A DNA stretch of 48,617 nucleotides. Origin: a virus. Made by a program: the position numbers and the translations under genes. Of the stretch, positions 17,833-40,214 are shown in pieces; the first letter of the stretch is position 1; each line of letters opens with the position of its first letter. The DNA lies in the IMG/VR virus record IMGVR_UViG_3300019458_000022; one strand, written 5' to 3'. Below the pieces are notes generated by a model. The model made no database searches. It worked only from the letters and a program-made list of their open reading frames with translations, and had not been told where the DNA came from.

Positions 17833-19788
17833 ATGAGTGCGACACTGGCCGCTCGTCGCAGGCGGCACGTCGGTGCGCTCGCCGGTATCGGAGGGACGCG
17901 GAGGCGTCGTCGGCGCCGTCGCGGGATCTCCGATGTGGCGGCGTGGTTCGGACACAAGCGGAAGCATTCCCGCGCGGCCAAGAAGGGCTGGCGCACGCGC
18001 CGCCGCCGCAAGAGCAGCCTGGGTCGGCTCACGAAGGCGGCCCGGAGGAAGGCGGCCAAGAAAGGCTGGCGCCGCCGGAAGCGGAAGGCCGCCGAAGGCG
18101 CGCTCGCCGGTGTCGGCGGGCGTCGTCGTCGGCGCCGTCGTTCCCGGAGCCGCCGTCGCCGTTCGCTCGGTCGGCTCACGAAGGCCGCCCGGAGGAAGGC
18201 GGCCAAGAAGGGCTGGCGCCGCCGCAAGCGCCGCGCCGCGGGCGCGCTCGCCGGTCTCGGCGGCCGTCGTCGCCGTCGTCGTTCGCGGAGCCGCCGTCGT
18301 CGTTCCCATCTCGGGGTCACGCGGCGCCGCCGTTCCCGTCGTCGTCGTTCGCACCTCAGCGGCACCCGCCGCCGCCGTTCCCATCGCCGTCGTCGGCACC
18401 TGAGCGGCACCCGCCGCCGGTCTCGCGGCCGTCGCCGGGGTCTCCGCGGCCTCGGCTACATGACCGAGACCTACGCGGCCGGTCGGTTCGGGCTGGACGG
18501 CCTGGGCCGCATCCTGCCCGGCGAGGTCATCGAGCGGTACAAGATGGGGCGCACCCGCAGGCGCAAGGGCCGGAAGGGCTCCCGGCGCAGCCGGAGCCGC
18601 CGGGGCGTCCGGGGCGTGTCCCTCAGGCCCATCGTCTACGACATGGGCGGAGCCAGGAGACGCCGTCTCGGCGCCTGGATGCCTGGAGAGGTCCGGACGA
18701 CGTTCGGACGGGGGTTCGGTCCCGAAGAGCAGTTCATGGGCCGCGTGCTGCCCGGGGAGGTCATCGAGCGGTACAAGATGGGACGGATGGGCCGCATCCT
18801 GCCCGGTGAAGTGATCGAGCGGTACAAGATGGGCATGCTGCCCGGAGAGGTCCGGACGACGTTCGGACGGGGGTTCGGTCCCGAAGAGCAGTTCATGGGC
18901 CGCGTCGTCGGCCGTGGCCGCGGTCGGGTGACCTACACCCGTCGTCGGCCCGTGCGCGGCGGCGTCACGAGGGTCACCCGGCGTCTCCCCTGGTTCGCGC
19001 GGGGCGCGATGGCGGGGATGTACGCCAACCCGAAGGAGACCTTCGGCGTCGGCCCGTTCAAGTACATCTTCTCGACGCACGGCCTGGTCGGGATCGGCGG
19101 CCTCGCCATGGGGCGTACGGTCTCGAACATCGTCAGCCACCTGCTGCACTTCTTCCTGACGTCGAAGGACGCCGAGGGCAAACCCAAGGCGCTGGTCGCG
19201 GCCCCGCTCATCAACCACGTCGGCGATCTGATCGGGGCGGTCGGCGGCTACGAACTGGGCCAGGTCATCGGCCGGAAGGCGTACGGGACGGATCTGGCGC
19301 GGATGGCGACTCTCGGCGCGATCGGCGGCCAGCTTTTCTCGTACCTTGCGAAGGGCACCATGGCCGTCCTCGACCTCATCGGCCTGGAGGTTCCGGGCGG
19401 CGCCAAGTACGGCGGCCTGGGACGCTACGGCGCGGAAGGCGAGGAACGGGCCATCGGACGCTACGGAGCGGAGGGCGAGGAGCGCGCGATCGGGCGCTAC
19501 GGCGCGGAAGGCGAAGAGCGTGCGATCGGCCGGTACGGCGGCGAGTCCGAAGAGCGCGCCATCGGGCGCCTCGGGCTGCCGGGCCAGGGCTCGCGTCCGG
19601 GCGGTTCCCGTGCCCTCCCTGCGGAAGAGCAGGAGGAGAAGGGGATCATCGACGAAGAGGGCCCCGAGGAGGTCGCCGCTTCCGAGATCATCCGCGATCC
19701 GGAGGCCGAGGAGCCCGAGGAGGAGTTCCTGGGCGCCCTGGCCGACGAGCCCGAGGAGGAGTTCCTGGGCTCGGGAGACAACTTCTAA
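17833..19788 (+). CDS. Protamine-like Arg-rich repeat protein; putative DNA-condensing core (poly)protein
   Basis: AGGAGG RBS; about 260 aa of poly-Arg blocks, internal repeats, hydrophobic segments, acidic C-terminus. Confidence 0.75.
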   Translation: MSATLAARRRRHVGALAGIGGTRRRRRRRRGISDVAAWFGHKRKHSRAAKKGWRTRRRRKSSLGRLTKAARRKAAKKGWRRRKRKAAEGALAGVGGRRRRRRRSRSRRRRSLGRLTKAARRKAAKKGWRRRKRRAAGALAGLGGRRRRRRSRSRRRRSHLGVTRRRRSRRRRSHLSGTRRRRSHRRRRHLSGTRRRSRGRRRGLRGLGYMTETYAAGRFGLDGLGRILPGEVIERYKMGRTRRRKGRKGSRRSRSRRGVRGVSLRPIVYDMGGARRRRLGAWMPGEVRTTFGRGFGPEEQFMGRVLPGEVIERYKMGRMGRILPGEVIERYKMGMLPGEVRTTFGRGFGPEEQFMGRVVGRGRGRVTYTRRRPVRGGVTRVTRRLPWFARGAMAGMYANPKETFGVGPFKYIFSTHGLVGIGGLAMGRTVSNIVSHLLHFFLTSKDAEGKPKALVAAPLINHVGDLIGAVGGYELGQVIGRKAYGTDLARMATLGAIGGQLFSYLAKGTMAVLDLIGLEVPGGAKYGGLGRYGAEGEERAIGRYGAEGEERAIGRYGAEGEERAIGRYGGESEERAIGRLGLPGQGSRPGGSRALPAEEQEEKGIIDEEGPEEVAASEIIRDPEAEEPEEEFLGALADEPEEEFLGSGDNF

Positions 19789-19956
19789 CGAAGGCTGTCG
19801 CGACTGTTCTTTGAGAAGTACCTGGGCCAACGCTGAGTTTCCAGAGCAGTACGGGTTTTACGAGCCGGGTTCCCAGATAAAAAACATTCCGGCCGGAGGG
19901 TGGAGGGCAGGGCTTTTTAGGGTAAGCGTGGCTTGCTGAGGGGAGGTGATCACTCT

Positions 19957-20565
19957 ATGCCGCGTCTGACAGGTAAGCGCGAGATCGTCACGGGCTGGAT
20001 CTACGACGCCGCGACGCTCGGTGTCTCCGGGCTCTCCGGCCGTGGATTCCAGATCCCCAACCCGGTGGATACCTGGGATGCGTTCCAGCAGCCCAAGGGC
20101 CAGGCGGGGAAGACCTTCACCCAGACGAACGTCGAGGCGGGCTCCGGGTTCCTCCCGGGCGTCAAGTCGTTCGTCATCAAGTCGGAGGTCTTCAAGGTCG
20201 AGGATTGCAGGCTCTCGGACGACGTCTGCAAGATCATCGACGGCGGCAACGCGACGCTCAAGATCTCGGAGAAGTCGTACCCCTCTCCGATGCCGATCTG
20301 GCTCTTCTCCGGCGGGACGGGCCTCTTCGACAACGTCCGCAGCGCCGCCGCCGCGGCCGGGGACATCCGGGCGACGGTCGGGCCGGGCAACATCGCCAAC
20401 GTGCTGAAGTTGCACCGGGCTCTGCCGGTTCCCATCAACACGCTGGAACCCTTCGTCTTCGAGTTCCGGTGGCAGCCCGCCATCACGATCGGGCCGCAGC
20501 CGACCGAGGACGGCATCCAGGTGTGGGTGGTGCTGTACGGCTTCCTGAAGCGTCAGGTGGCGTAA
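19957..20565 (+). CDS. Candidate major capsid protein (single jelly-roll-like)
   Basis: 202 aa beta-strand pattern (WIYD...QTNV..GSGFLP...FVI...VWVVLYG); very strong RBS GGAGGTGAT; followed by a GC hairpin; directly after the core-protein gene. The fold is inferred. Confidence 0.5.
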   Translation: MPRLTGKREIVTGWIYDAATLGVSGLSGRGFQIPNPVDTWDAFQQPKGQAGKTFTQTNVEAGSGFLPGVKSFVIKSEVFKVEDCRLSDDVCKIIDGGNATLKISEKSYPSPMPIWLFSGGTGLFDNVRSAAAAAGDIRATVGPGNIANVLKLHRALPVPINTLEPFVFEFRWQPAITIGPQPTEDGIQVWVVLYGFLKRQVA

Positions 20566-20605
20566 GCCGCCCGGCTGCGGAAGGAACCGCACTGGTCGAG
20601 TACAA

Positions 20606-20660
20606 GGGGGAGGGCGCGGCCTCCGCGCCCTCCCCCCGCTGTACCTTCCAGGTTTTTTTG
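20606..20660 (+). terminator. GC-rich hairpin after the capsid candidate
   Basis: GGGGAGGGCGCGG-cct-CCGCGCCCTCCCC, with a T-run about 15 nt downstream. Confidence 0.5.
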
Positions 20661-20721
20661 GCCCTCGGCCTTGTAGAGCCTGCCGAGCGGATGAAGGGGT
20701 GGCTCCCCGGAGGACTTTTTT

Positions 20722-21303
20722 GTGCCGAACGAAACGCGCGAAGAAGACCTGGACGTCAGGGCGCTTCTTCGGAAGATCAACAAGAACCAGAACGCGCTTC
20801 ACTCCCGGCTCACGTCGATCGAGCAGCGGGTTTACAAGTACACCGACGACGTCGGCGAGGTCTCGAAGCGCGGACAGGGGATCTTCGAAGACGTCTTCAA
20901 GGTGATCCTCACGGTCGAGTTCACCGAGGCGCTCCAGGTCCAGAGCGACCAGTTCATCACCGCCAGCGACTTCCATTTTGATTACCTGAAGGTCGCGGGC
21001 TTTCCCGAGCAGTTCAGGTCGCGGGTGAATATCCGGTTCAAGGACATCTCCAGCGACGTGGAACTCGTGGGGCGCCGCGATTTTATGCCGCTCGACACGT
21101 TCGCGGGCACGGGAGAACTTCCGTTCGCGGAAGTCGCGCCCCGGCGCTTCGTCGCCCGCGGCGGCATCCTCATGGACTTCCAGGACAACGGGACCATCGA
21201 CGGGGTGACGCCCTCGAACCCGGGCGACTTCCCGTACCGGATCACGATCACGATCCATGGTCTCAAGGTCTTCCTCCAGAGGGTCGAGCGGCAGGGACAG
21301 TAA
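20722..21303 (+). CDS. Putative structural protein (N-terminal helix plus beta-sandwich)
   Basis: 193 aa, GGAGG plus GTG start, alternating beta pattern. Confidence 0.6.
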   Translation: MPNETREEDLDVRALLRKINKNQNALHSRLTSIEQRVYKYTDDVGEVSKRGQGIFEDVFKVILTVEFTEALQVQSDQFITASDFHFDYLKVAGFPEQFRSRVNIRFKDISSDVELVGRRDFMPLDTFAGTGELPFAEVAPRRFVARGGILMDFQDNGTIDGVTPSNPGDFPYRITITIHGLKVFLQRVERQGQ

Positions 21304-21311
21304 GCCCTGCC

Positions 21312-21947
21312 ATGATCGTGAGACGACCGTTCCGCTTCGCGGCAAGCGAAGTGGAGAAGAACCAGAGGTCACACTACGTCCTGAACGACCTCCCCCTGGA
21401 GCACCAGGTCCGCGGAAACGACATCGTCAACACGGTGATCCGCCGGAAGGAGATCGGATTCCGGACTGTCGCCTATCCCGGCGGCGTCATGAAGTACGAG
21501 GAGGCGATCGTCGGCAAGATCCCGGACGAGCACCGGGTCCATCCGGAGGGCCTGGAATCCTACTACCTGCCCGAGATCGTCGCGCCGCCGGACTTCTCCC
21601 AGCCGCTCATCCTGTCGGACACGTTCACGATCCCAGCCTTGGCGTCGAACTTCGTCACGATCGACTTCACGGTGCCGATCGCGCGCGAGGCCGCGATCAA
21701 GACCGCTTTCTTCGAGGTCGCCGACGCCTCGATCGACACGATCAGCTTCAACATCGTCTACGGCGGCATGAAGAGCGAGTTCGCGGTCAATGTCGAGGTC
21801 TCGCCCCTCGAATCCTGGCAGGCGAACATGCGCCTGGACGAGCAGATGCGGGTCGCCGTGCTCGTCACGAACGCGCTCGCGGGCATCCGTTCGGTCCGGG
21901 TGGCGCTGAACGGCTGGATCTACCCGGTCCATAAGAGGGTGGTGTAG
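21312..21947 (+). CDS. Putative beta-rich structural protein
   Basis: 211 aa; C-terminal beta pattern ending VRVALNGWIY, similar to the end of the 19957 protein. Confidence 0.6.
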   Translation: MIVRRPFRFAASEVEKNQRSHYVLNDLPLEHQVRGNDIVNTVIRRKEIGFRTVAYPGGVMKYEEAIVGKIPDEHRVHPEGLESYYLPEIVAPPDFSQPLILSDTFTIPALASNFVTIDFTVPIAREAAIKTAFFEVADASIDTISFNIVYGGMKSEFAVNVEVSPLESWQANMRLDEQMRVAVLVTNALAGIRSVRVALNGWIYPVHKRVV

Positions 21948-21949
21948 CG

Positions 21950-22585
21950 ATGGTCGATACGCTCACCATCTTCTCGAAGCGCGTCAAGGTCCCGGCCAAG
22001 GGCGTCGTATCGAGCAATTTCTGGGTCTCGATCGGCTTCGGCTCGATCCGGGGGATCGCCAACGCCGACAAGGTCGGCCCCGAAAGCCTGGTCCGGATCA
22101 TCCAGGGAATCAATCCGGAGAAGCGGGACCGCCAGCGGGCCATCAAGCTCTTCGATCCGAACTGCGACATCAAGCTCATCGAGCCCGTGTGCTCGCAGCT
22201 TGTGCGCGTGGACTACGAGAACGACCTGGACGAAGAGGTCAACCTTTCGCTCGACGTCGCGCTCTCGAAGCGGCGCGTCGAGCGGGACGAGGTCAAGTAC
22301 CGGGACTTCTTCAACGAGACGCGCACCGTGCTCGCGGGATCGACGTTCGCGCAGAACGAGGTCAACATCCAGGAAGCCCTGGGACGGTCGGTGACGTCGC
22401 TCCACATCCAGCTTCCGACGTCCACGGACCTCGTCAACCTAAAGATCAACGACGAGGGCACGAACCTTTTCGAGGTCATCGGGGAACGTCGCTTCACGCC
22501 CGAGGCCGACCAGTTGGAAATCTGCCGGGTCTTCATCGAGAACCCGGGCGCGGGCAACCTCGACGTGAGAATCTTCGCGACCTGA
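21950..22585 (+). CDS. Putative beta-rich structural protein
   Basis: 211 aa, tight operon spacing. Confidence 0.6.
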   Translation: MVDTLTIFSKRVKVPAKGVVSSNFWVSIGFGSIRGIANADKVGPESLVRIIQGINPEKRDRQRAIKLFDPNCDIKLIEPVCSQLVRVDYENDLDEEVNLSLDVALSKRRVERDEVKYRDFFNETRTVLAGSTFAQNEVNIQEALGRSVTSLHIQLPTSTDLVNLKINDEGTNLFEVIGERRFTPEADQLEICRVFIENPGAGNLDVRIFAT

Positions 22586-22595
22586 TTTAGAGGGC

Positions 22596-23261: not shown

Positions 23262-23306
23262 TCGGGATTCCGAGACCGGATGGACTGATTGGATGCGAGG
23301 CGTGGA

Positions 23307-24548
23307 ATGAGCAAGAAGCGCGGACATCGCGGCGGCGCCCGTCATCGCGGGACCGGTGCCAGGGAATCCGGCATCCCGCCCGGTCTCTGGGTGACGCTCT
23401 TCGGCGTGACCGGGATCACAGTGCTTGGGGTGGCTCTCGCCAACTCGAAGAAGAACAACGCGAAGGACAAGGGCACGTCCGGGCTCCGCGACCTTCCGAC
23501 GCACTACCCGTTCTACCCGCGCGTCATGCCGTCCTACGAAGTCCCGATGAAAGTCCACCGGGACGCGGAGATCATCCAGCACCAGGAAGTGAACCCGGCC
23601 GGGAAGGTCATCATCTCCGAGGAGATGCAGCCGGTCGAGAACGTCCAGTACCTCCCGCAATTCACGCCTCCGGCGAGCCGCCGTCTCCCGGACAATCCGT
23701 TCGAGTTCTCTGGAATCGAGGGTGAGGAGCCCGAAGAGGAGTTCATGGGCGCGGCCGAGGAGCCGGAAGAGCAGTTCCTCGGGACGACGCGACCCAAGCC
23801 CTACTATCCCACCGACTTCGAGGCCGTGAACGCCACTTTCGAGAAGGTGGACGGCCTGAAGCTGGAGGGGATCAACGTCGGCGAAGCGAAAGCCCCTGCG
23901 ACCGTCGAGGAGATGTTCGCGCAGAAGATCATGCAGACGACCATCGAAGCCGAGGAGGATACGAAGCGCGACCAGAAGCGCTTCGATGACGAACTCGGCA
24001 ACCGCGAGGCGACGGCCGACGACCTCGACATCGACGACACCGCTCCGGACGAGGATGAAAAGGACGATGAAGAGGCCGGGGACGTGATGGAGGAGGACAA
24101 GGCCGAAAAGGAAGAACCCGAAGGGAAGGACGAGGCCGAGGAGAAGGAGGACGAGTTCGAGGAGCTTGACGAGGACGACATCGAGAAGGCCCTCGACGAA
24201 GCCGAGAAGGCGCCTCCGGCTCCGTCCGCTCCGCCAAAGGCCATCGTCGAAATGCCCGGTCCTCCCATCAAGGAGGAAGTCATCACCGAGGTCCGTCCGG
24301 TCCTTCCTGGAAGGCCCCCGGGTGGGGCGCCCGCGGAAGTCAAGGTCGGCGGCAAGTGGATCGGCGCGAAACCCGGCCGCCCGCTGCCCGAACACGCAGT
24401 CGCCAAAGGCGTTCGGCGCAAGGTGACCCGGATCGCCGGAGTCGATGCCAGGAAGCTCGCGATGCTCGCCGAACTCGGCGAATACGACAAGGCCAAAGAA
24501 GAGGCGTTCGAGGCGCTCGAAAACGGGCTTATGAACGGCCTCTTCTAG
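23307..24548 (+). CDS. Membrane-anchored acidic low-complexity protein
   Basis: N-terminal TM; two PEE[EQ]F[ML]G motifs; D/E-rich tract; start after GAGG. Confidence 0.7.
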   Translation: MSKKRGHRGGARHRGTGARESGIPPGLWVTLFGVTGITVLGVALANSKKNNAKDKGTSGLRDLPTHYPFYPRVMPSYEVPMKVHRDAEIIQHQEVNPAGKVIISEEMQPVENVQYLPQFTPPASRRLPDNPFEFSGIEGEEPEEEFMGAAEEPEEQFLGTTRPKPYYPTDFEAVNATFEKVDGLKLEGINVGEAKAPATVEEMFAQKIMQTTIEAEEDTKRDQKRFDDELGNREATADDLDIDDTAPDEDEKDDEEAGDVMEEDKAEKEEPEGKDEAEEKEDEFEELDEDDIEKALDEAEKAPPAPSAPPKAIVEMPGPPIKEEVITEVRPVLPGRPPGGAPAEVKVGGKWIGAKPGRPLPEHAVAKGVRRKVTRIAGVDARKLAMLAELGEYDKAKEEAFEALENGLMNGLF

Positions 24549-24560
24549 AGGCGGAATTCC

Positions 24561-24923
24561 ATGTACATCAACGAGATCGGCGATCCGAAGCGCAGGAGGC
24601 GGGTGCCTCCTTCATGGGCCGCCGCCAAGGGCTTGAGGCGGAAGTTAAGCGGGCCCGTGGAAGAGGAGGCTCCGCCGGTCGAGGATGTCGTGGCTACCGG
24701 CCCGAAGGACGTCGAGCTTCCCGGGCCCAAGATCGAGCAGTTGCGCCCGACGCGGGCGTACGAAGAGCTTCCGGCGATCCCCGAGTTCGAGTTCGGAGGC
24801 GAAATGGTCCTCCCGGAGGACGTCGAAAAGGTCGCCGAACTTTCGGAGTTCGGCGAGTACCACGCCCAGGACCCGATCGCTCTGCGATCCCTGGAGAACG
24901 CGATCATCAATGGACTTCTCTGA
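24561..24923 (+). CDS. MY-start hypothetical virion protein
   Basis: MYINEIG; C-terminus resembles that of the previous gene. Confidence 0.7.
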   Translation: MYINEIGDPKRRRRVPPSWAAAKGLRRKLSGPVEEEAPPVEDVVATGPKDVELPGPKIEQLRPTRAYEELPAIPEFEFGGEMVLPEDVEKVAELSEFGEYHAQDPIALRSLENAIINGLL

Positions 24924-25774
24924 TGTACGTCAGCGCAATGGAAACGTTCGAGCACGGAGCGCTCGCGGGTGTCACGAGCATCGTGGCGCCCGATGGGCGC
25001 CAGCTTGGAGCAAGCCTCGGGAAGAAGGTGCGGAAGACGGTCAAGCGCGCAGGGAGAGGCGTCAAGCGGATCGCGAAGACGAAAGCCTTCCAGTACGCGA
25101 TGGCGCCCTTCACGGCCGGGATGTCGATCGCATCCGTCCGGAAGGGCGCGAAGAAGGCGCTCGTCAAGTACGGACCGTACGTCGCGATCGCCGCGCAAGC
25201 GCTCAACCTTGTCGTTCCCGGACTGGGAGTGGCGGTGGGCGCGGCGATCGCCGCGGGCTCAACCGCGTTGCAGGCAAAAGAGGCCAAGAAACAGGTGAAG
25301 GAGGCGGAGAAGCAGGCTCTTTCAGCGCAGGCGGCCGAAACCCAGGCGATGGCCGACGAGCAAATGAATAGCGCGTACACGACTGGAGAGAAGTACTTCA
25401 CGGAAAAGTACGGCATGAGCCGGGACAAGTGGACCGCGCTTCCGTACGACGACAAGCTCAAGTTCGTCCAGAACGTCGTCTACGACCAGAACCAGGAACA
25501 GATGGCGGCGGAAGGGGTCACGCGGGAGCAGTTCATGGCGATGCCCGTTGAGGAACAAAACAGCATTGTCGCGGCCCTGGGCGAAACCGAGTTCAAGGAG
25601 CTTAGCTCGGGCGAGCGAAGGAAATTGACCGCCGAACTCGCGTCGGCGGTCGGGGAGCCCGTGCCCGAGGAAGGACTCCTCGGGCTTCCGCTCTGGGCGT
25701 GGCTCGCCATCGGAGGAACCGTCGTTGTCGGGATTCCGGTGGTAGTCATGTTGGCGCGTAGGAAGGCGGCATAG
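24923..25774 (+). CDS. MY-start membrane protein
   Basis: MYVSA; ATG overlaps the upstream stop; internal hydrophobic hairpin and C-terminal TM followed by RRK. Confidence 0.7.
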   Translation: MYVSAMETFEHGALAGVTSIVAPDGRQLGASLGKKVRKTVKRAGRGVKRIAKTKAFQYAMAPFTAGMSIASVRKGAKKALVKYGPYVAIAAQALNLVVPGLGVAVGAAIAAGSTALQAKEAKKQVKEAEKQALSAQAAETQAMADEQMNSAYTTGEKYFTEKYGMSRDKWTALPYDDKLKFVQNVVYDQNQEQMAAEGVTREQFMAMPVEEQNSIVAALGETEFKELSSGERRKLTAELASAVGEPVPEEGLLGLPLWAWLAIGGTVVVGIPVVVMLARRKAA

Positions 25775-25777
25775 CGC

Positions 25778-29040: not shown

Positions 29041-29634
29041 ATGTACGCGAACGTCGGAAACGTGGCCATGATGGGAGCGCTCGGTCAGACGGGCGAGGAG
29101 ATCCACGCCCGCGCGGCCAGGCTCATCAAGGAGTACGAGACGCTTCTCGATACGGCCAAGCGCATCAAGAGCGACGAGGCCGTGAAGGAACTCGTCGGCC
29201 GCTTCGGGATCGGGCGACCCAAGGACGAGCGGACGCCTGACTACTACTACGTGAACGTGAAGAGCTACTACGACCGGGCGGTCGCGGCCGTGCCGACGAA
29301 CTACGCGATCTGGAAAGCCGGATCGCGGCCGATCAACCGTGTCGAGGGCCTCTCCGACGCCATCAAGGATCTGGAGCCCCGGGTCAAGGACGCGGCGTCG
29401 CGTTTCGGCCTGATGCCCGGAGTCCCTCCCAAGGAGATCATCCGGGAAGAGAAGGTGATCGAGAGGTTCATCGAGCAGGAGTTCCTGGGGCTCCCGGTCA
29501 AGACCTGGCTCTACATCTCGGGGGGCGTCGCCGCGACCGGCGTCCTTGTCGGAATCATCATCGCGGCGACGAAGTCGGCTCCCGCGGGACGGAGGAAGGC
29601 GGCGATGGGCGGGATGGGACGGATGGGGCATTGA
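29041..29634 (+). CDS. MY-start membrane protein
   Basis: MYANV...MGALGQ; C-terminal TM. Confidence 0.7.
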   Translation: MYANVGNVAMMGALGQTGEEIHARAARLIKEYETLLDTAKRIKSDEAVKELVGRFGIGRPKDERTPDYYYVNVKSYYDRAVAAVPTNYAIWKAGSRPINRVEGLSDAIKDLEPRVKDAASRFGLMPGVPPKEIIREEKVIERFIEQEFLGLPVKTWLYISGGVAATGVLVGIIIAATKSAPAGRRKAAMGGMGRMGH

Positions 29635-30256: not shown

Positions 30257-30655
30257 ATGGCAGGGTTCGCAACGACGTTGGTGGCCACGGTGACGGGACC
30301 GGGCCCGCTCACCTTCACGGCCATCAGTTCCGAGGGAGCGGTCATCGCGACCGGCCTCACGGAATTCGTCTTCCCCGACAACGGGAAGCGGTTCCAGGTC
30401 CAGGTCGTCGATGGGTCGAACAGCAGCGGCGCCTTCCAGTACCGTCTGATGTACAAGGGGAACGGCGGCACCGTGAAGCTGATCGACGTGGTCTCCGCGG
30501 CGGCGGGCGAGGTTCTGAAGAGCTTCGCCGTCGAGAGTCCGCTCCTCGAAGTGCTGGGCGACGGCACCCGGTCGATCTCCGCGGAAGCGATCATCGCGAT
30601 CGGCGCCCCCGCGGACGGCTGTCTCGTGGTGATCGTCGTCCAGCGCGAGACGTAG
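30257..30655 (+). CDS. Beta-rich structural protein, tandem paralogue 1
   Basis: MAGF...GLTEFVFP...GCLVVIVVQRET. Confidence 0.8.
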   Translation: MAGFATTLVATVTGPGPLTFTAISSEGAVIATGLTEFVFPDNGKRFQVQVVDGSNSSGAFQYRLMYKGNGGTVKLIDVVSAAAGEVLKSFAVESPLLEVLGDGTRSISAEAIIAIGAPADGCLVVIVVQRET

Positions 30656-30730
30656 CCGGGGGTTCCGAACCTGGAGAGTTAGACACGGGGCCTGGAGAAC
30701 GGCTCAAGGACTGCCGAAGGAAGGTGCGAC

Positions 30731-31123
30731 ATGGCCGGATTTGTACATACCCTCGTGGCGTCGGTCACCGACGTGGGTCCGATCACGTTCACGGCGATCG
30801 AGGACGAGGGGGCCACGATCACCCCGGGCCTGACGGAGTTCGTGTTCCCGGACACGGGGCGCGTCTCCCAGGTCCAGGTGGTCGATGCATCGGACTTCGG
30901 GCCGTTCAGCTTCCGCCTGAGCTACAAGGGCGACAGCGGCGTCGTGAAGCTCATGGACATCGTGTCCAAGACGGCGGGCGAGGTGTTCAAGAAGTTCAAC
31001 GTGAACAAACCGCTCTTGGAGGTCGAGGGCAACGGGGTCCGGGCGCTTCGTGCGGAAGCCCTGGCCGTAGGCGCTTTCGATCTCGGGTGTCTCGTCATCG
31101 TCGTCGTGGAACGGGAGACGTAG
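30731..31123 (+). CDS. Beta-rich structural protein, tandem paralogue 2
   Basis: Aligns end to end with the 30257 and 31201 proteins. Confidence 0.8.
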   Translation: MAGFVHTLVASVTDVGPITFTAIEDEGATITPGLTEFVFPDTGRVSQVQVVDASDFGPFSFRLSYKGDSGVVKLMDIVSKTAGEVFKKFNVNKPLLEVEGNGVRALRAEALAVGAFDLGCLVIVVVERET

Positions 31124-31200
31124 GCGGAGGTTCGCAACAGATGGGCTAGGCATGGAGCCTGGCCGGAAGTTTTACGCGGATTGTTGAAGGAGGATGCAGC

Positions 31201-31599
31201 ATGGCAGGGTTCGCGCACACTCTTGTGGCCTCGGTCACCGGCGTGGGTCCGCTCACGTTCACGGCGATCGAAGACGAGGGGGCCACGATCACCCCGGGTC
31301 TGACGGAGTTCGTGTTCCCGAACTCGGGTCGCGTCTCCCAGGTCCAGGTGGTCGATGCCTCGAACAGCGCCGGTGCCTTCTCCTACCGCCTGAAGTACAA
31401 GGGGGACAGCGGCACCGTGAAGCTCATCGACGTCGTGTCCGCGGCGGCGGGCGAGGTCTTGAAGAGCTTCGCCATCGAGAGCCCGCTCCTCGAAGTCAGG
31501 GGAAACGGCACCCGGGCGCTGCTGGCCGAAGCCATCGTCGCGGGCGGCGCGACGCCGGACGGCTGCCTCGTCGTCATCGTCGTCGAGCGGGAGACCTAG
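31201..31599 (+). CDS. Beta-rich structural protein, tandem paralogue 3
   Basis: Aligns end to end with the 30257 and 30731 proteins. Confidence 0.8.
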   Translation: MAGFAHTLVASVTGVGPLTFTAIEDEGATITPGLTEFVFPNSGRVSQVQVVDASNSAGAFSYRLKYKGDSGTVKLIDVVSAAAGEVLKSFAIESPLLEVRGNGTRALLAEAIVAGGATPDGCLVVIVVERET

Positions 31600-32254: not shown

Positions 32255-32256
32255 CC

Positions 32257-33795: not shown

Positions 33796-33804
33796 GGACG
33801 AGCT

Positions 33805-34566
33805 ATGGTGACGCTGCCTCATCCGGTTCCTGCGGACTACGTCCTCATCAAGCCGTCCACGTACGAGGACGTCCAGATCACCGACTACGTCAAGGACACG
33901 CAGGCCGGGTACCCGCGCACGTTCCTGGCCGTGGACAAGGGCAAGTACTCGGTCAAGCCGGACGGCAGCCGCGTCCCCGAACCGGACGAGCGCATCCAGA
34001 TGATGGTCGTCGAGAGCGAGAGACCCGAGGCGGACAAGCTCGGCTCCATCTGGTCGTGGAAGGTCGTCAACGAACTCACCAACAACCAGTTGGTCTACCG
34101 GGCTCCGGACCGGGCGCGCGCGCTCAAGGAAGCCCAGGAACACGCGGCGGCGGCCGAGAAGATCCCGATGGACTACAAGAGCCCGGCGAAGCCCGTCTGG
34201 CCGATCTTGCTCGGGGTCGGCGCCGCCGTGCTCGGGGTCGGAGGATTCCTCTATTGGCTGGCGACCCGCAAGAAGGAGCGGCCATCGCTCGGGGACTACC
34301 CCGAAACCGAGTTCATGATGGGTGATCTCCCGGAGGAGCAGTTCCTGGGCGCCCGGCGTCGGATGGGCAAGATGAGCCGTGCGGCCCAGAGGTTCGTCTC
34401 GACGAAGATCCGCGCCCTTCGGCACGAGGGCTATCCGGCCAAGCAGGCGGCCCGGATCGCCTACGAGTACGCGCGCCGCGCGGGCTACAAGGTTCCGGAA
34501 CCTCGCAAGGTCGCCGGGGTCGGGCGCATAGGGCCAAAGAAGAAGAAGAAGCGGATCTACTGCTAG
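33805..34566 (+). CDS. Membrane protein with basic C-terminal module
   Basis: Central TM; PEEQFLG; KQAARIAYEYARRAG basic helix. Confidence 0.7.
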   Translation: MVTLPHPVPADYVLIKPSTYEDVQITDYVKDTQAGYPRTFLAVDKGKYSVKPDGSRVPEPDERIQMMVVESERPEADKLGSIWSWKVVNELTNNQLVYRAPDRARALKEAQEHAAAAEKIPMDYKSPAKPVWPILLGVGAAVLGVGGFLYWLATRKKERPSLGDYPETEFMMGDLPEEQFLGARRRMGKMSRAAQRFVSTKIRALRHEGYPAKQAARIAYEYARRAGYKVPEPRKVAGVGRIGPKKKKKRIYC

Positions 34567-34575
34567 GAGACGGGA

Positions 34576-35022
34576 ATGTACATCGGACAGGCACCGGCGC
34601 AAACGATCGTCCGGATTCCCGTCTGGCTCAAGGTCATGGACATTCCGCTCGCGGGCCAGAAGGAGGGAGCGCCCATCTACGAGGCGCAGGCGTCCTACGC
34701 GATCAGCGTTCAGCCCGGCGTCTGGACCGACTACGGGGGGGAAGTCCCGTCCGACCGGGAAGGGAAGATCCATTTCGACGACGTCCCGGTTTCGGCGACC
34801 GTGGGCGACACGAAGGTGCCGGTCCAGAAGGTCCGTTTCAAGATCAGGAAAGAAGGGTATGACCCGCAGGTCGTCGAGGTGCTGCCGACCGCGGTCCCCA
34901 AGTCGATCGACCTCGTGCTCAAGAAGACCGGATACGTATTCAAGTGGTGGCATGTGGCGGTGCCCGTGTTTGGAACGGGCCTCACCGTTCTCATCTGGCG
35001 TCTGGCAACACGGGGACGGTAG
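34576..35022 (+). CDS. MY-start membrane protein with prealbumin/PEGA-like beta domain
   Basis: MYIGQ; SDREGKIHF, IRKEGY; FKWW-TM. Confidence 0.65.
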   Translation: MYIGQAPAQTIVRIPVWLKVMDIPLAGQKEGAPIYEAQASYAISVQPGVWTDYGGEVPSDREGKIHFDDVPVSATVGDTKVPVQKVRFKIRKEGYDPQVVEVLPTAVPKSIDLVLKKTGYVFKWWHVAVPVFGTGLTVLIWRLATRGR

Positions 35023-35034
35023 ATCGGAGGCGGC

Positions 35035-35916
35035 GTGAGACTGGGAAGCATCGCGGAGATCAACAAGGCGCTCGCCGGATACGTCAAGTTCCGGCCCGAG
35101 TATCTTTCGGACTTCGACCTGGGCGTGCTCGGCAAGCGCGGAGTTCCCGGACGACAGATCCTTTACCGGTTCCTCGGTCGGGAAGACGAGACCGAGGTCG
35201 TTCTCGGGGTCGATGCCGTCGAGAGCGCCGAGGACGAGCGCGAGGTCGGCAAGAAAATCAAGGTCTCCGAGAACGAACTTCTTAGAGAAGGATGGGAGTG
35301 GTTCAAGCCCTCGGGCGTGAAGCGTACCTCGGTCGCCATCCAGGTGATTGCGGACGGTAAACCGCTTCCGGGCGCGGTCGTCGCCCTCTGGGGAGGGCTT
35401 CCTCCGTTTGCGGGCAAGGTAGCGGAGATCCTGACCGACTCCGGGGGCATGGCCCGGTTCGAGAACGTGGCGCTCCTCCCGGCGATGGCCTTCCGCGTGA
35501 GCAAGGATGGATACGCGGCGCAGAACGTGACCGCGCGGCCGGATGGCGCGATTTCGGTCGCGCTCGCAGCCGAAGGCTTCAAGTTCAAGTGGTGGATGGC
35601 GCTCATCCCGGTCGGCGTCATCGGGGGGATCTGGGGCCTCTCCGCGATCCTCTCAAAGAGAAGCTCCTCGAAGCTCCATGGGCTCCCGACGAAAGGCGCC
35701 CCTGGGCTCGGGAATATGGGCGCGGACGATCTCGATCGGCTCCGGGCCTACGAGACCCGGCTCCGGCGCGCCTATGACGCGCTCACTGAAGCCGACCGGG
35801 AAGCCGGGAGGCTCCGAAAGGGAGCCGAAGTCGGAGACCTCCGGCGCATGCAGCGGAACGTCAGGGCCATGATCGACGAGGCCGAGGAACGGATGGCCCG
35901 GGAAGGCGAGGAATAG
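35035..35916 (+). CDS. Membrane protein with carboxypeptidase-regulatory-like beta domain
   Basis: GKPLPGAVV...TDSGGMARF...VSKDGY; FKWW-TM; PGLG then a coiled coil. Confidence 0.65.
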   Translation: MRLGSIAEINKALAGYVKFRPEYLSDFDLGVLGKRGVPGRQILYRFLGREDETEVVLGVDAVESAEDEREVGKKIKVSENELLREGWEWFKPSGVKRTSVAIQVIADGKPLPGAVVALWGGLPPFAGKVAEILTDSGGMARFENVALLPAMAFRVSKDGYAAQNVTARPDGAISVALAAEGFKFKWWMALIPVGVIGGIWGLSAILSKRSSSKLHGLPTKGAPGLGNMGADDLDRLRAYETRLRRAYDALTEADREAGRLRKGAEVGDLRRMQRNVRAMIDEAEERMAREGEE

Positions 35917-35917
35917 C

Positions 35918-36418
35918 ATGTATCTCCAGCAGACGCAGGACGACGGCCGGTTCTTCCACGTCCCGAAGGACTACCGGCAGTGGAGCCAGTACGAGCAGTT
36001 CCTCGCCTGGAGCCTGAGGGCCGCTCGGAGCGCGGACAAGTTCCGGGCCGTCGCCCAGCGCGTCTTCGCGCTTGCCACGGGACCGAAGAAGGACGTTCTC
36101 ATGGCCAAGATCGGCCAGAAGGCGGACCCGAAGAGCGGGATTTCGCTCTACGACTGGGTCTGGCGGCGCGCGGCGCTCAGGAACCCGCATCTCTGGAAGA
36201 GCCAGGAAGCGCGGCAGTGCGTCCTTCGCCTGGAGGCGTTGACGGGCGATCTCCGGAAGGGGCTCGCCCAGGAAGGTCTCGGACAGGCCGAAGACCGGAA
36301 GATCTCCGGCTGGGTCTGGGTCGGCGCCGCCGCGCTCGGCCTGGGAAGCCTGGCGGTTCTACTCTTCGCTCCGCGGAAGCAGGGACGGCTTCGCCTGGCG
36401 GGAACGCGCCGGAGGTAG
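35918..36418 (+). CDS. MY-start membrane protein
   Basis: MYLQ; EGLGQ; C-terminal TM. Confidence 0.7.
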   Translation: MYLQQTQDDGRFFHVPKDYRQWSQYEQFLAWSLRAARSADKFRAVAQRVFALATGPKKDVLMAKIGQKADPKSGISLYDWVWRRAALRNPHLWKSQEARQCVLRLEALTGDLRKGLAQEGLGQAEDRKISGWVWVGAAALGLGSLAVLLFAPRKQGRLRLAGTRRR

Positions 36419-36434
36419 GAATAGGGGAGACGCC

Positions 36435-36818
36435 ATGTACCTCTCGATGATGACGGGTCAAGGGCGCAGGATGAACGGCGCGCGGACGAACATGTCCGCG
36501 CTCGCCGGGATCATGAATCCCGCGCTCGGACAGGTCGCGCTCCCGTTCACTTCTGTCAAGGACCCGACGACGTTCCTCATGGGCGCCGGGCTTGCCGGAG
36601 TCGGGCTCGCGCTCGGAGTCGGTGCCATGGGTGCCCTTTTCTTCCTCGGTACGGCGCTCGAAGCGAAATCGAAGCTCGTCAAGGTCACGGGCTATGCGCT
36701 TTCGGTGACGAGCGGCGTCGGGCTCCTTCTGGCGATCGCGGGTCTCATCGGAGGTCTCATGCAGAAGAAGGCTGCGGCACCGCAGGCCCAGGCCGAAAAG
36801 ACTACGGAGACGGTATAG
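36435..36818 (+). CDS. MY-start protein with two TM segments
   Basis: MYLSM...ALAG...ALGQ. Confidence 0.7.
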   Translation: MYLSMMTGQGRRMNGARTNMSALAGIMNPALGQVALPFTSVKDPTTFLMGAGLAGVGLALGVGAMGALFFLGTALEAKSKLVKVTGYALSVTSGVGLLLAIAGLIGGLMQKKAAAPQAQAEKTTETV

Positions 36819-36832
36819 CCGGGAAAAAGACA

Positions 36833-37255
36833 ATGTACGTGAACGGGACCTTGAAGGTGGCGGGCGCGCTCGGGAACCCGACCGTTCTCGGCGCTCGCCG
36901 TTCTCGGATCGGACAGGCTCCCTCCGAGAACGCCGGAACCATCGTCCCGAAGGTAGGACCGTTCGGATTGGCGCCGTTGCCTACGGGCCTGATCTTCATC
37001 GCGGGCGGAGCCGTCGCCGGAATCCTCGGGACCTATTGGAGCCGCCGACGCACGACGATCCTCGGCAAGAAGGTCTCCACGTTCTGGAACTTGCAGTTCG
37101 GCACCGGCGGAATCGGGATAGCGATGGCATGGCTCGCCGCGTTTCCCATGATCCTGACCGGCGCCGGGTATATCGTCCTTCATTTATTCATGAAGTACGG
37201 ACTTGGGGAGTTGGAGAAGGCCGCAGCCGCTCCCGCTCCAAAAACCCAGGGATGA
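36833..37255 (+). CDS. MY-start protein with two TM segments
   Basis: MYVNG...ALG..VLG..RIGQ. Confidence 0.7.
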   Translation: MYVNGTLKVAGALGNPTVLGARRSRIGQAPSENAGTIVPKVGPFGLAPLPTGLIFIAGGAVAGILGTYWSRRRTTILGKKVSTFWNLQFGTGGIGIAMAWLAAFPMILTGAGYIVLHLFMKYGLGELEKAAAAPAPKTQG

Positions 37256-37278
37256 CAGTGTAGCGGAGTACGGGTATA

Positions 37279-37512
37279 ATGAAGGAACTCGCGGACTTCC
37301 TCCTCCAGTACGGATGGGTCGGCCTGTCCGTCATCCTGATGTTCGTCTGCGTTTTTCTCTACTTCCGGGCGGAGAAGAAGGAAAAAAAGATCTACGAGCT
37401 TTACGAGCGGAACGAGGCCAACTCCCTCAAGTACGCCGATGGGATGGAAAAGATGAGGCAGACGGTCGAAAGGCTGCTCCTGCAAGGCGGAAGAGGGACC
37501 GGTGCGCCATGA
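37279..37512 (+). CDS. Small single-TM protein, BhlA/UviB holin-like
   Basis: QYGWVGLSVILMFVCVFLYF followed by a charged coiled coil. Confidence 0.45.
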   Translation: MKELADFLLQYGWVGLSVILMFVCVFLYFRAEKKEKKIYELYERNEANSLKYADGMEKMRQTVERLLLQGGRGTGAP

Positions 37513-37946
37513 TGAAAAAACATCGAACGGATTTCCCGTCGCCTTCCCAGAAGAAGTTCGAGGAAGCGACCGAGCGTGCGCAGAGGACACTGGACATGGC
37601 GGAGAAGGCTCTCGAAGGACACCCGATCCCGCACAAGGCGGTGATCGTGTCGAAGGACAAGGCGTACCGGGACGCCTCCAGGGCGGCGCTGGCCGACCGG
37701 TCGGACTACGAGATCGTGGCCGTGGACCCGGACGAGGCCATCGAGCCCGTCCTCAAGGGAAGCGTGAACGTGGTCTTCCTTCTGGACTACAACGAACGCC
37801 ACCTGGAAGCTCTCTCGAAGTGCGTGGCCAAGAAGGTGATCGCGGTAGCTTCTGAAGACGACACGCAGCGCGCGTGGCTTCACGATCTCAGGGCGATCGT
37901 CGTCAAGACGCCTCTTTCTCCGGAGATGATGAAGCTCGCGTTTTAG
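37509..37946 (+). CDS. Divergent response-regulator receiver (CheY-like) protein
   Basis: beta/alpha pattern KAVIVSKD...VVFLLDY...VIAVAS...IVVKTP. Confidence 0.45.
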   Translation: MMKKHRTDFPSPSQKKFEEATERAQRTLDMAEKALEGHPIPHKAVIVSKDKAYRDASRAALADRSDYEIVAVDPDEAIEPVLKGSVNVVFLLDYNERHLEALSKCVAKKVIAVASEDDTQRAWLHDLRAIVVKTPLSPEMMKLAF

Positions 37947-37964
37947 GAATTCGAGGGAATCGCC

Positions 37965-38780
37965 ATGTACGTCAGCCTCGCTGGAACGTCCCGGATGGGG
38001 GCGCTCGGCCGGACCTATCCGGAAGAGATCGAATCGACGATCCGTAACATCGGCATGTCGCTCGATCTCATCATGGACTCGACGCTCAACCTGCCCCCGG
38101 GCGAGCAGAAGGGAGTGATCGAGAAGGTTCGCTCGCTCAACGCGCAACTGACGAATGAGATCGTCGTCCCGAGCGACCAACTTTCGGACGAAGAAGCGAA
38201 ACACCGGCTCTGGAAGATCTCCACCGACCTCTTCGCTCTCGAAGGGATCTTCCGCAAGGCCGGGGTCGAACTGAAGCCGCTTCCGATGGAGCCGACCACG
38301 ACCGGTACCGCGACGATTCCGCGGGCCGACGCGAAGGCCCTGTCCGACCGGTACAAGGAGGCATTCACGCTCTTCCCGAACCTCCAGAATCGCTGGCCGC
38401 CGATGCGGGCGTTCGCGGTCAAGATGGCGCCCCTGCCTTTCATCGGCCCGCTCTTCGTCGCGCTCACGAACGCGATCGACCAGCGGATGAAATGGCTGGA
38501 CAACAACCTTCTTCCGGTGGACAAGCTCATCAATGATCTCAAGGTCCAGATCGACGCCGGGACCGACCCCATCCGCTTCGACCGGAACGCCTTCGACCGG
38601 CTTCGTACGTGGATCGGGTCCGTGTTCTCGATGGAGGACAAGATCAAGCGCCTGGAAGGCGAGTTCCTGAAGAAGGCAGATCCCTACAAGGCGCCGATCC
38701 CCTGGGGAAAGATCGGCCTCGTGGCCGCGGGGACCACCGTGTTCGTAGGAGGTCTCTGGTATCTCCTCAAGAGGGCGTAA
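37965..38780 (+). CDS. MY-start helical protein with C-terminal TM
   Basis: MYVSLAG...MGALGR; IPWGKIGLVAAG-TM-KR. Confidence 0.7.
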   Translation: MYVSLAGTSRMGALGRTYPEEIESTIRNIGMSLDLIMDSTLNLPPGEQKGVIEKVRSLNAQLTNEIVVPSDQLSDEEAKHRLWKISTDLFALEGIFRKAGVELKPLPMEPTTTGTATIPRADAKALSDRYKEAFTLFPNLQNRWPPMRAFAVKMAPLPFIGPLFVALTNAIDQRMKWLDNNLLPVDKLINDLKVQIDAGTDPIRFDRNAFDRLRTWIGSVFSMEDKIKRLEGEFLKKADPYKAPIPWGKIGLVAAGTTVFVGGLWYLLKRA

Positions 38781-38792
38781 GGAGAGGTCATC

Positions 38793-39626
38793 ATGTGGAG
38801 CCGAGAGATCGTCTGGGGCAAGTGGGTCCCGCCGGATGTGAAGGCGGCGCTCTGGCAGTCCCCGGCCGAGATCTACACGCCCTTCAATTACGTGAGCGGA
38901 CTGGGCGCGAGGCGCCCCCTGACCAGGGCTCCATGGGCCTACGGTTTCAGAGAAGTCCGTCCGGAACACGCGAAAGTGGCGAGACTGCTTGCGCAGGCGC
39001 GCGGGCAACTGACGAAAGAGAACTACGACGCCGCGCTCGAAATCGCCTATCGGGCCGAGAAGCTGGCCCACCGTTCTGGACTGGTCGATGTCCTCGACGA
39101 GATCCGGGACGTGATCGACGAGGCCGAAACCTCGGAGGCTCTCCTCATGGGGCTTGGCGGCCTGGGTGCCGAGGTCACGGAGACCCAGATCCGCCGGGCT
39201 CTCGATACCGCGCGCGAGAAGGCCGCGGAGGGCCAGGTCGGATCGGCGATCTCCTTCGGGCGGCAGGCGCTCGACATGGCCTATGAAGGGGGGTTCCAGG
39301 ATCTGGAGGAAGAAGCGCGCAGTTTCCTGATCCGGGAGGTCCATCCGTCGCATGTGGACGGCGTGGGGGTCGGAGCGCTTCTCTCCGTGATCCACGATCG
39401 CCATGCGCGACTCGTCTGCGCCGATGCCTGGGAAGGACCCATGGCGTTCCGCGAGTACCTCGAAGAGGCGGCTCCTGGATTCGAGAGCGGGCGTTACCAC
39501 GTCGCCTATTTCGGCGCCGATGCCGACAGCGCCTACCGGGTCATGAAGGACGTCGAGGAGGCTTTCGATGCCGCCCCCGTCCTAGACCCGATCGCCCGCG
39601 ACATGCTCTACGGAGCCGTGACCTAA
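38793..39626 (+). CDS. Hypothetical helical protein
   Basis: 277 aa; domains separated by SGLG, MGLGGLG and DGVG. Confidence 0.7.
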   Translation: MWSREIVWGKWVPPDVKAALWQSPAEIYTPFNYVSGLGARRPLTRAPWAYGFREVRPEHAKVARLLAQARGQLTKENYDAALEIAYRAEKLAHRSGLVDVLDEIRDVIDEAETSEALLMGLGGLGAEVTETQIRRALDTAREKAAEGQVGSAISFGRQALDMAYEGGFQDLEEEARSFLIREVHPSHVDGVGVGALLSVIHDRHARLVCADAWEGPMAFREYLEEAAPGFESGRYHVAYFGADADSAYRVMKDVEEAFDAAPVLDPIARDMLYGAVT

Positions 39627-39638
39627 AGAGAGGAAGCT

Positions 39639-40214
39639 ATGTACGTCGGCGACGAACCGGCCAGGAAAAAGAGCTTCTGCGGGAGGCATCCCGACGCGGA
39701 GTTCATGGGGAAGGCGCCGGAGGAGCAGTTCCTGGGCGGAGACCTTCTCGTCATCGAGGGTCTAGACCATCTGAACGAGGTCGGACAGCCGATCGGCCCC
39801 TACGAGCCCGACTACCGTCCGGACCTGGTTCCCTGGGTGACCAAGCCGTCCACGAACCATTTCGCGGCCTATCGGAGGGCCAAGGACGGCCGCTACTGGG
39901 GGCCCGGAAACCAGTATCTCCCTGGATTTCCCCCGGCCCATCTCTATCCGGAATGCGACATCTGGCCGGAAAGCGCGATCGCTGGCATCCACGGCATCGA
40001 CGACCTCGGACTTCATGAGGAGGCTGAGCAGGAACGGGCTCTCGCGATCGCGAAGAGCCAGTATCGGGTCGCCAAGGACGCGAAGACGAGAGGGCAGATG
40101 GAGATATTCAACGAGCAGGTCGGCTTCCTGAGAGGCGTGAAACGACTCGCGGAAGTCGAAGGGGCGGCGCGGCTTGAGACCGAAGTCCACCGGATGATCC
40201 AGGACTTGGGGTGA
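39639..40214 (+). CDS. MY-start hypothetical protein
   Basis: MYVGD; PDAEFMG, PEEQFLG. Confidence 0.7.
   Translation: MYVGDEPARKKSFCGRHPDAEFMGKAPEEQFLGGDLLVIEGLDHLNEVGQPIGPYEPDYRPDLVPWVTKPSTNHFAAYRRAKDGRYWGPGNQYLPGFPPAHLYPECDIWPESAIAGIHGIDDLGLHEEAEQERALAIAKSQYRVAKDAKTRGQMEIFNEQVGFLRGVKRLAEVEGAARLETEVHRMIQDLG

Follow-up and report, generated by a model that had tools for sequence, protein, structure and literature searches.

A short acidic-aromatic peptide recurs in four unrelated late proteins of a metagenomic virus and may tag them for particle assembly or maturation

The virus record IMGVR_UViG_3300019458_000022 carries the short peptide P[ED]x[EQ]F[LM](M)G ten times in four otherwise unrelated proteins. 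The virus is known from metagenomes alone and its lineage is essentially undescribed. We regard the peptide as a real, shared, virus-specific short linear motif that is most likely read in particle assembly or maturation. The reading that we favour, with a probability of about 0.42, is that of a dock-and-cut tag which would be cut after its Gly by a transglutaminase-fold peptidase, the 15705 protein. The window analysed here is the whole stretch of 48,617 nucleotides (G+C 62%). Up to about 13 kb it carries the early genes, one of them for an SNF2 helicase, on the minus strand; a long late module on the plus strand comes next. Genes and proteins are named by their position in the window.

Results

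The motif recurs in pairs in four late proteins

An earlier note on this DNA had described paired copies of such a peptide in four unrelated proteins. We scanned all six frames of the window with a regular expression for P[ED]x[EQ]F[LM](M)G and obtained ten matches in 4 of the 56 called proteins. All ten lay on the plus strand, in the coding frame of their carrier and within the late module (Table 1), and they agreed exactly with the positions given before, including that of a weaker EQEFLG. Neither the minus strand nor any of the five alternative frames contained the strict motif, and the window's 12-13 early genes lacked it as well. Chance would yield next to none: the mean was 0.003 matches over 300 within-protein shuffles of the 56 proteins, and the analytic expectation is 0.0037. 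The number of independent motif events is nearer 4-6 than 10, because both mid-protein PEEQFMG copies of the core protein are held by a duplicated 23-residue unit (72 of 90 nucleotides identical). Even so, the recurrence exceeds chance by many orders of magnitude. Paired copies are separated by spacers of 2-5 residues, which places their Phe residues 9-12 residues apart, and in three pairs the residue before Phe is Glu in the first copy and Gln in the second.

The carriers proved unrelated, as had been proposed, since BLAST among the four found similarity solely in 20-59 residues across the motif region. Three of them have in common an ordered cassette of about 27 residues, in which a hydrophobic-x-Gly element is followed by PxxEFM(M)G and then PEEQFLG. 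The motif occupies the N-terminal region of the 39639 protein, a linker of the 33805 protein, a linker between two conserved segments of the 23289 protein and, in the core protein, a linker in mid-protein as well as the C-terminal tail. Acidic or Pro/Gly-rich segments house every copy. Within 20 residues on either side of the motif the fraction of disorder-promoting residues is 0.57-0.66 against a background of 0.50, a measure of composition only.

Table 1. Positions of the motif copies, their carriers and associated features (window coordinates unless a relative is named)
Feature	Positions	Strand	Description
PEEQFMG	18721-18741	+	Arg-rich core protein, mid-protein, duplicated 23-residue unit
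PEEQFMG	18880-18900	+	Core protein, second copy of duplicated 23-residue unit
PEEEFLG	19714-19734	+	Acidic C-terminal tail of core protein
PEEEFLG	19750-19770	+	Core protein, 5 residues upstream of C-terminus; tail ends ...DNF
PEEEFMG	23730-23750	+	23289/23307 protein
PEEQFLG	23763-23783	+	23289/23307 protein
PETEFMMG	34300-34323	+	33805 protein
PEEQFLG	34330-34350	+	33805 protein
PDAEFMG	39690-39710	+	39639 protein
PEEQFLG	39717-39737	+	39639 protein
Near-motif EQEFLG (without Pro)	29473-29490	+	29041 protein, directly ahead of transmembrane helix; GEEFLG in L004
Near-motif REQFMA (Ala for Gly)	25523-25540	+	Re-called gene 24923-25774
Cassette, about 31 residues	23691-23783	+	23289/23307 protein: EFSG, PEEEFMG, PEEQFLG
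Cassette	34273-34350	+	33805 protein, between transmembrane helix and basic C-terminal domain: PSLG, PETEFMMG, PEEQFLG
Cassette	39651-39737	+	N-terminus of 39639 protein: SFCG, PDAEFMG, PEEQFLG; adjoins GGDLLVIEGL domain start
Carrier 1, core protein	17833-19788	+	651 amino acids: Arg-rich repeats, hydrophobic Gly-rich region, acidic tail
Carrier 2	23289-24548	+	413-419 amino acids (ATG at 23307): basic N-terminus, transmembrane helix, long acidic region
Carrier 3	33805-34566	+	253 amino acids: N-terminal domain, transmembrane helix, motif linker, small basic domain (phrog_2423)
Carrier 4	39639-40214	+	191 amino acids: MYVG start, motif region, conserved globular part
Candidate reader, 15705 protein	15705-16445	+	Transglutaminase fold (predicted): Cys (GSDCDD), His (SHVY), Asp (LDPT)
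16435 paralogue	16435-16974	+	Catalytic Cys replaced by Ala (GDASD); His and Asp retained
Asp-x-(Pro)-Phe-COOH ends	window 19771-19785; L004 9874-9888; L005 ~2054-2068; L006 ~2410-2424		Core protein C-termini

We defined a short linear motif operationally as 3-10 residues in a disordered context that recur in non-homologous proteins and are conserved while their position turns over. The peptide recurs in non-homologous proteins, lies in linkers or tails and is retained with turnover in orthologues, as expected of such a motif. The earlier note had called it a short linear motif for protease recognition or for docking to capsid or scaffold. Its confinement to linkers and tails of the late module and the signs of selection at the peptide level bear out the first part of that description; the two proposed functions are not separable on the present evidence.

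Several related strings were set apart from the motif. The EQEFLG of the 29041 protein is probably no copy of the tag but part of a conserved juxtamembrane segment. REQFMA belongs to a gene that we re-called at 24923-25774 (start MYVSAMETF...), buried in a long spurious open reading frame (24356-25774); its true frame is shown by a switch in the G+C content of third codon positions (GC3) at about 24930. Besides REQFMA, its product has GALAG at residues 12-16 and a further near-motif, GETEFKEL. An IEQFLG at 22015 was discarded, being out of frame relative to the 21950 gene. A PEP-CTERM/PEF-CTERM-type sorting signal was rejected, as in none of the four carriers is the motif followed by a transmembrane helix with a basic tail, and the beta-clamp, SSB-tail and FtsZ-tail motifs do not match in consensus.

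Two further features of the carriers were noted. The small basic helical domain of the 33805 protein (34357-34509, residues 185-235) belongs to the widespread phrog_2423, whose roughly 100 database homologues either stand alone or form part of larger chains, the proteins ranging from 48 to 1286 amino acids; the motif linker would part this domain from the membrane anchor. The 23289 and 24561 proteins have a common C-terminal end, AEL.E(Y/F)...(F/L).(A/S)LEN(G/A)(L/I)(M/I)NGL(F/L)-COOH (24480-24545 and 24860-24920), whose L004 orthologue reads ...ERLMNGDL.

Selection appears to act on the peptide rather than on the DNA

Codon bias in the window is strong (GC3 0.8-0.9) and accounts for the DNA likeness of the motif copies: two PEEQFLG copies from different genes have the same DNA sequence, and a 14-nucleotide core, GARSAGTTCMTGGG, repeats in the window with 0-1 mismatches. 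We compared the codons of 27 motif copies from the window and its relatives. Pro (CCC/CCG/CCT), Glu (GAA/GAG), Leu and Gly codons all varied synonymously, and the flanking DNA was unrelated. The peptide pattern, in contrast, was kept. The position before the aromatic residue was exclusively Glu or Gln, the aromatic residue was Phe in all copies but one (Trp), Met or Leu came next except for a single Phe, and the last position was Gly save for one Ser. This combination of synonymous change, unrelated flanks and a conserved peptide indicates that selection works on the peptide, not on the DNA. The earlier remark that codons differ between copies is therefore right for the third bases of the Pro, Glu, Leu and Gly codons and needs the qualification that bias makes the copies alike, to the point of identity in the two PEEQFLG copies.

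The recurrence of GARSAGTTCMTGGG with at most one mismatch is what could suggest a DNA- or RNA-level element, such as a protein-binding site or a repeat, that is translated incidentally. We consider this very improbable. All copies share one strand and one gene-relative frame, and the 14-nucleotide core did not occur, with 0-1 mismatches, in another frame or on the opposite strand of the window. Moreover, amino-acid changes are conservative (E/Q, L/M, F/W), synonymous sites are variable, and codon bias suffices to explain the DNA similarity.

The motif persists in relatives with turnover of copy number and position

Relatives of this virus turned up in metagenome assemblies, and the prediction that the motif would be conserved in orthologues held, with changes in copy number and position. 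In the 39639 family the motif was present in the variable N-terminal region of 4 of 4 orthologues (50-60% identity), at 2 to about 9 copies per protein, including tandem ETPEEQFMG arrays of period 9. The last copy abuts the invariant GGDLLVIEGL domain start in 4 of 5 sequences; the fifth (P0005) keeps just Leu-Gly-Gly. An orthologue of the 33805 protein with 44% identity has PEMEWMG in the same linker and an extra copy near the C-terminus, and the motif was absent from a 36% relative.

Relatives of the core protein were reached via the neighbouring 19957-family gene, and the lineages are named here by their identity in the 19957 protein. The 88% lineage retains the two mid-protein copies and the C-terminal pair, and the 74% lineage retains the C-terminal pair and has PEEQFFG elsewhere. 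The C-terminal pair is present in the L004 and L005 orthologues, and it is Glu-only in three lineages. In the 49% lineage, paired LPEREFKERL and EDEVDGVG repeats (EDEVDGVG twice) stand in place of the motif. Such persistence with turnover is typical behaviour of a functional short linear motif.

Repeats of the GVDEVEG/EDEVDGVG type form a second family of paired acidic repeats ending in Gly. In L004, the 74% relative, a single protein of 480 amino acids (13134-14576) combines the counterparts of the window's 22596 and 23289 genes, and the motif pair is swapped for GVDEVEGVDETDGVDEVG. Core proteins of all four lineages end in Asp-x-(Pro)-Phe-COOH (DNF, DTPF, GDPF, DSPF), including the lineage without a PEEEF[LM]G pair; this looks like a separate conserved C-terminal handle, and its form resembles that of acidic ...PF tails, for instance the SSB tail.

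Wider searches added no carriers. No relative of the element was found among cultured phages by megablast of 12 kb or tblastn of the 15705 and 19957 proteins, nor in IMG/VR with three single proteins or alignments as queries, and a 19957-family profile detected no integrated relative in the 401 sampled Planctomycetota genomes that were searched. As a protein query, the 46-residue cassette matched only itself. A DNA scan for the motif pair in IMG/VR and 185,579 species genomes, which required exact GC-rich codons, gave 4 IMG/VR loci and at least 120 stretches in species genomes. Among the roughly 80 matches listed we saw out-of-frame reads, simple DNA repeats and unrelated genes (e.g. a trpB-like leader region), all of which were dismissed; with these exact codons and among these matches, mimicry of a host motif is unsupported.

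A transglutaminase-fold pair is a candidate reader

The sole peptidase-like genes in the window are a pair predicted to have a transglutaminase fold, 15705 and its paralogue 16435. They sit between a gene for a coiled-coil scaffold-like protein (13176) and the core gene, and the pairing of an active Cys copy with an inactive Ala copy is also found in L004. An ESM Atlas model of 15705 aligned with viral Transglut_core clusters at template modelling (TM) scores of 0.62-0.67 by query and 0.88 by best cluster. The AlphaFold2 (AF2) model had its best match in the PDB with 3kd4 (Z 8.4); 23 rows reached Z >= 5, and transglutaminase folds made up most of them. Further matches at Z 3.5-6.3 comprised Factor XIII, TG2/3, PeiP/PeiW, LapG, PNGase, vasohibin and protein-glutaminase; PeiP/PeiW and LapG had the top Foldseek probabilities. 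According to the fold model and the conservation of the triad, the Cys lies at the N-terminus of a helix and His and Asp on the strands that follow, as in the transglutaminase superfamily. A transglutaminase-type Cys-His-Asp fold is thus reasonably supported by the models for 15705, whose activity could be that of a peptidase, an isopeptidase/lysin, a cross-linker or a deamidase. In L004 a patatin-like phospholipase gene and three small genes (7257-8093), absent from the window, separate the transglutaminase-like pair from the core gene.

The late module holds other recurrent peptide elements

Some 30 late proteins had no structural match in Pfam or PHROG, with few exceptions (spermidine synthase, collagen-like, LamG-like and GT2-TPR-methyltransferase). 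In the same searches these proteins did not match a protease of the T4 gp21/assemblin type, and neither a portal, terminase, HK97-type capsid nor encapsulin was detected in the window. Pfam likewise gave no match to a clan CE (adenain/Ulp) protease among the window proteins. The 19957 'capsid-like' protein (AF2 model with a predicted local distance difference test score, pLDDT, of 35) had weak Atlas leads to PRD1 P3/P2 (0.76-0.78); these matches, the only basis for a jelly-roll capsid, make it a weak lead.

Many late proteins have a Met-Tyr-aliphatic start and a C-terminal transmembrane helix with a basic tail. Across non-homologous late proteins the most widely shared 5-mers were GALAG, ALAGI and PEEQF. 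Since GALAG and PEEQF are both so common, the module contains more than one recurrent peptide element. GAL(A)G is found at residues 11-18 of five window proteins, and together with the Met-Tyr start it looks like a short leader. GAL(A)G and the motif both end in an aliphatic residue and Gly, and aliphatic-Gly also marks the repeat boundaries of the core protein. The idea that the motif is a second element of the same peptide code finds some support here, in the shared 5-mers and the common aliphatic-Gly end.

Met-Tyr-aliphatic N-termini were counted in about 16 late genes between 15705 and 39639 and are kept in the L003, L004 and L006 orthologues, including those of the 49% lineage. Strings of the adenain type ([MIL]xGGx or [MIL]xGxG) number 39 in the late proteins of 13176-41279 against 25.2 +- 4.8 expected and are not enriched in early proteins (5 against 5.2). 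Aliphatic-Gly dipeptides are enriched 1.3-1.6 times in late proteins, part of which may be explained by Gly-rich transmembrane helices. Three tandem paralogues of about 130 amino acids (30257-31599; MAGF...TLVA..., beta-rich) lie downstream of a fourth small beta-rich gene (29709) and may be spike or vertex components.

Discussion

Dock-and-cut and its rivals

How might one peptide serve four unrelated proteins? As a dock-and-cut tag, its acidic Pro-Glu-Glu-Glu/Gln-Phe part would be the handle for one common partner, and its aliphatic-Gly end would be the scissile site of the 15705 Cys-His-Asp peptidase, possibly assisted by the Cys-to-Ala paralogue 16435. Cutting after Gly would remove the variable N-terminal region of the 39639 protein in pieces of 9-12 residues, free soluble domains of the 23289 and 33805 proteins from their membrane anchors, and take the terminal handles off the core protein. 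Going by its modelled fold, 15705 would then be a maturation peptidase that cuts at the motif. We favour this reading because the enzyme pair lies between the scaffold-like and core genes, because papain-like Cys enzymes commonly cut after Gly, because the motif ends like other boundary elements (GAL(A)G) and because it marks the boundary between variable and conserved parts in the 39639 family. Papain-like Cys peptidases with such a preference include adenain, PLpro, Atg4 and the C39 leader peptidases, and LapG is a sequence-specific transglutaminase-like protease. The multiple copies in a variable N-terminal region also have a parallel in SPN3US, whose long propeptides carry several cleavage motifs each and are cut in pieces (PMC10052503).

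A number of points weigh against this reading. The four carriers are probably particle components (a protamine-like core protein, two membrane-anchored proteins and a soluble one), a membership assumed from gene order alone. The AF2 model of 15705 is of middling quality (pLDDT 54, predicted TM score 0.55), and by sequence the 15705 family found nothing significant in the PDB or Pfam, the best Pfam match (E = 0.03) being on the L004 paralogue. The predicted fold is also that of virus-encoded cell-wall isopeptidases (PeiP/PeiW), cross-linking transglutaminases and glutaminases, and fold alone does not decide what 15705 does. Trimming pieces of 5 and 12 residues from the core C-terminus would seem to make little sense if the tail were not a handle. 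In the 23289 orthologue of the 74% lineage, GVDEVEG-type repeats at the spot of the motif pair have no aliphatic residue before Gly. Finally, tandem arrays of period 9 with fast copy-number change are classic features of docking by avidity.

The motif might indeed stay intact. The acidic-aromatic peptide would then fit into a pocket of some assembly partner that is itself repeated, and several copies would add avidity. Candidate partners include the capsid protein with its inner face, the 13176 protein (coiled-coil and scaffold-like), the 16435 paralogue in its inactive form and a hub of the host. Encapsulin cargo-loading peptides and the DPF/FxDxF arrays of endocytic adaptors are precedents. 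Uncut docking is, taken alone, somewhat unlikely in our view, and nearly as likely as dock-and-cut. Its account of the tandem arrays, regular spacing and C-terminal tail is no worse and perhaps better: 2 to about 9 copies follow each other at 9-12 residues, their position turns over between orthologues, and they lie in acidic disordered tails, up to the extreme C-terminus of the core protein with its Asp-x-(Pro)-Phe-COOH conserved in four lineages. The seven-residue footprint bounded by Pro and Gly would suit a pocket, and adenovirus pVI and pVII peptides do occupy one hexon pocket (10.1101/857581). What binding alone leaves aside is the Cys-peptidase-like pair within the same module and the aliphatic-Gly end that the motif has in common with other boundary motifs.

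Transglutaminase chemistry at the Gln of PEEQF[LM]G, either cross-linking to Lys of basic virion proteins or deamidation to Glu, is improbable. It would make the encoded Glu versions pre-converted or non-reactive mimics. The fold matches of 15705 include Factor XIII, TG2, TG3 and protein-glutaminases, the residue before Phe is strictly Gln or Glu, with Glu first and Gln second in three pairs, and hydrophobic residues after Gln suit some transglutaminase substrates, e.g. QQFFG of substance P. About half of the copies have Glu, however, which is unable to serve as acyl donor; in three lineages the core C-terminal pair has Glu in both copies, and E/Q is a conservative single-base exchange that a plain binding site would show as well. 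Just as improbable is a functionless cassette, a repeat-prone acidic segment spread by duplication or recombination and drifting in disordered regions. Such spread would fit with carriers that share about 27 residues, beyond the seven of the motif, with PEEQFLG copies identical in DNA in two genes, with copies that are recent tandem duplicates and with other acidic repeats taking the place of the region in relatives. Drift would hardly keep Pro, Glu/Gln, Phe, Leu/Met and Gly over 27 copies despite synonymous change and unrelated flanks, nor preserve the motif in lineages down to 58-74% protein identity, never out of frame and never in early genes. Owing to these conservation data, the functionless and the DNA-level readings are both poor fits.

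The tag could also have a bolder role, for which the chances are slim. It may be the substrate or ligand of the transglutaminase-fold pair editing or cross-linking virion proteins at Gln as a maturation switch, or the acidic-Phe arrays may draw in a hub of the host that forms membrane coats or vesicles, so as to wrap an internal membrane of the virus. In both cases the assembly principle would be one undescribed for bacterial viruses.

In a late module with almost no recognisable structural genes, the tag is a rare handle on particle membership and on the component that reads it. If 15705 does cut at the tag, a fold not known among maturation proteases would be acting as one, with a specificity predictable from sequence, and the tag could be used to annotate packaged proteins clade-wide. 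If the tag docks, it would be a compact loading signal of about 27 residues.

Comparison with known tag systems

Recurrent peptide tags on virion proteins are a known kind of feature, with examples in T4, phiKZ/SPN3US, adenovirus and encapsulins. In the capsid targeting of T4, processed by gp21, and in phiKZ/SPN3US, one short motif occurs in unrelated proteins as it does here, those proteins being head-internal. There the motif marks variable propeptides beside conserved mature domains, and long propeptides with multiple copies are cut small (PMC10052503; see also PMC9026906). Their sites end in Glu (L/I-x-E or S/A/G-x-E), whereas the motif described here ends in Leu/Met-Gly and has no Glu at P1. 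Their cutter is a serine protease of the T4 gp21/herpesvirus assemblin type, unlike the transglutaminase-fold genes that are the only peptidase-like ones in the window.

LapG (Peptidase_C93) and PeiP/PeiW resemble 15705 in fold and Cys-His-Asp triad; LapG is sequence-specific and PeiP/PeiW are virus-encoded. Neither has significant sequence similarity to 15705, and their targets differ: for LapG a periplasmic adhesin, cut at a di-alanine site, and for PeiP/PeiW the cell wall. To our knowledge, neither LapG nor PeiP/PeiW processes virion proteins.

Encapsulin cargo-loading peptides are short, lie on flexible ends of unrelated cargo, direct it to the shell interior and at times occur in several copies. 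They are hydrophobic or Gly-rich, usually basic and typically C-terminal, whereas the motif here is acidic and often internal or N-terminal; they pair with an HK97-fold shell, and none was detected in the window. Endocytic-adaptor arrays (DPF/W, FxDxF, NPF) bring together multiple, fast-evolving acidic-Phe motifs in disordered regions and bind a folded hub by avidity in coat assembly. They belong to a different kingdom and have a different consensus, and the comparison is one of how they work only.

In adenovirus, related short peptides occur on a protamine-like core protein and on membrane-active proteins, near Gly-containing sites of a Cys protease, and docking is coupled to release; pVII, the core protein, and pVI, the lytic one, use the same hexon pocket and are freed by the viral Cys protease (10.1101/857581). 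The adenain consensus, (M/I/L)XGG-X or (M/I/L)XGX-G, fits 0 of the 10 motif copies, and the enzyme here, with its Cys-His-Asp order and predicted transglutaminase fold, is not adenain.

The motif, the paired cassette and the candidate transglutaminase-fold reader match no known tag system, since the motif ends in Gly and not in Glu, does not fit the adenain consensus and comes without a detected HK97 or encapsulin shell. For a tag that is placed on protamine-like and membrane proteins alike, adenovirus offers the closest functional analogy.

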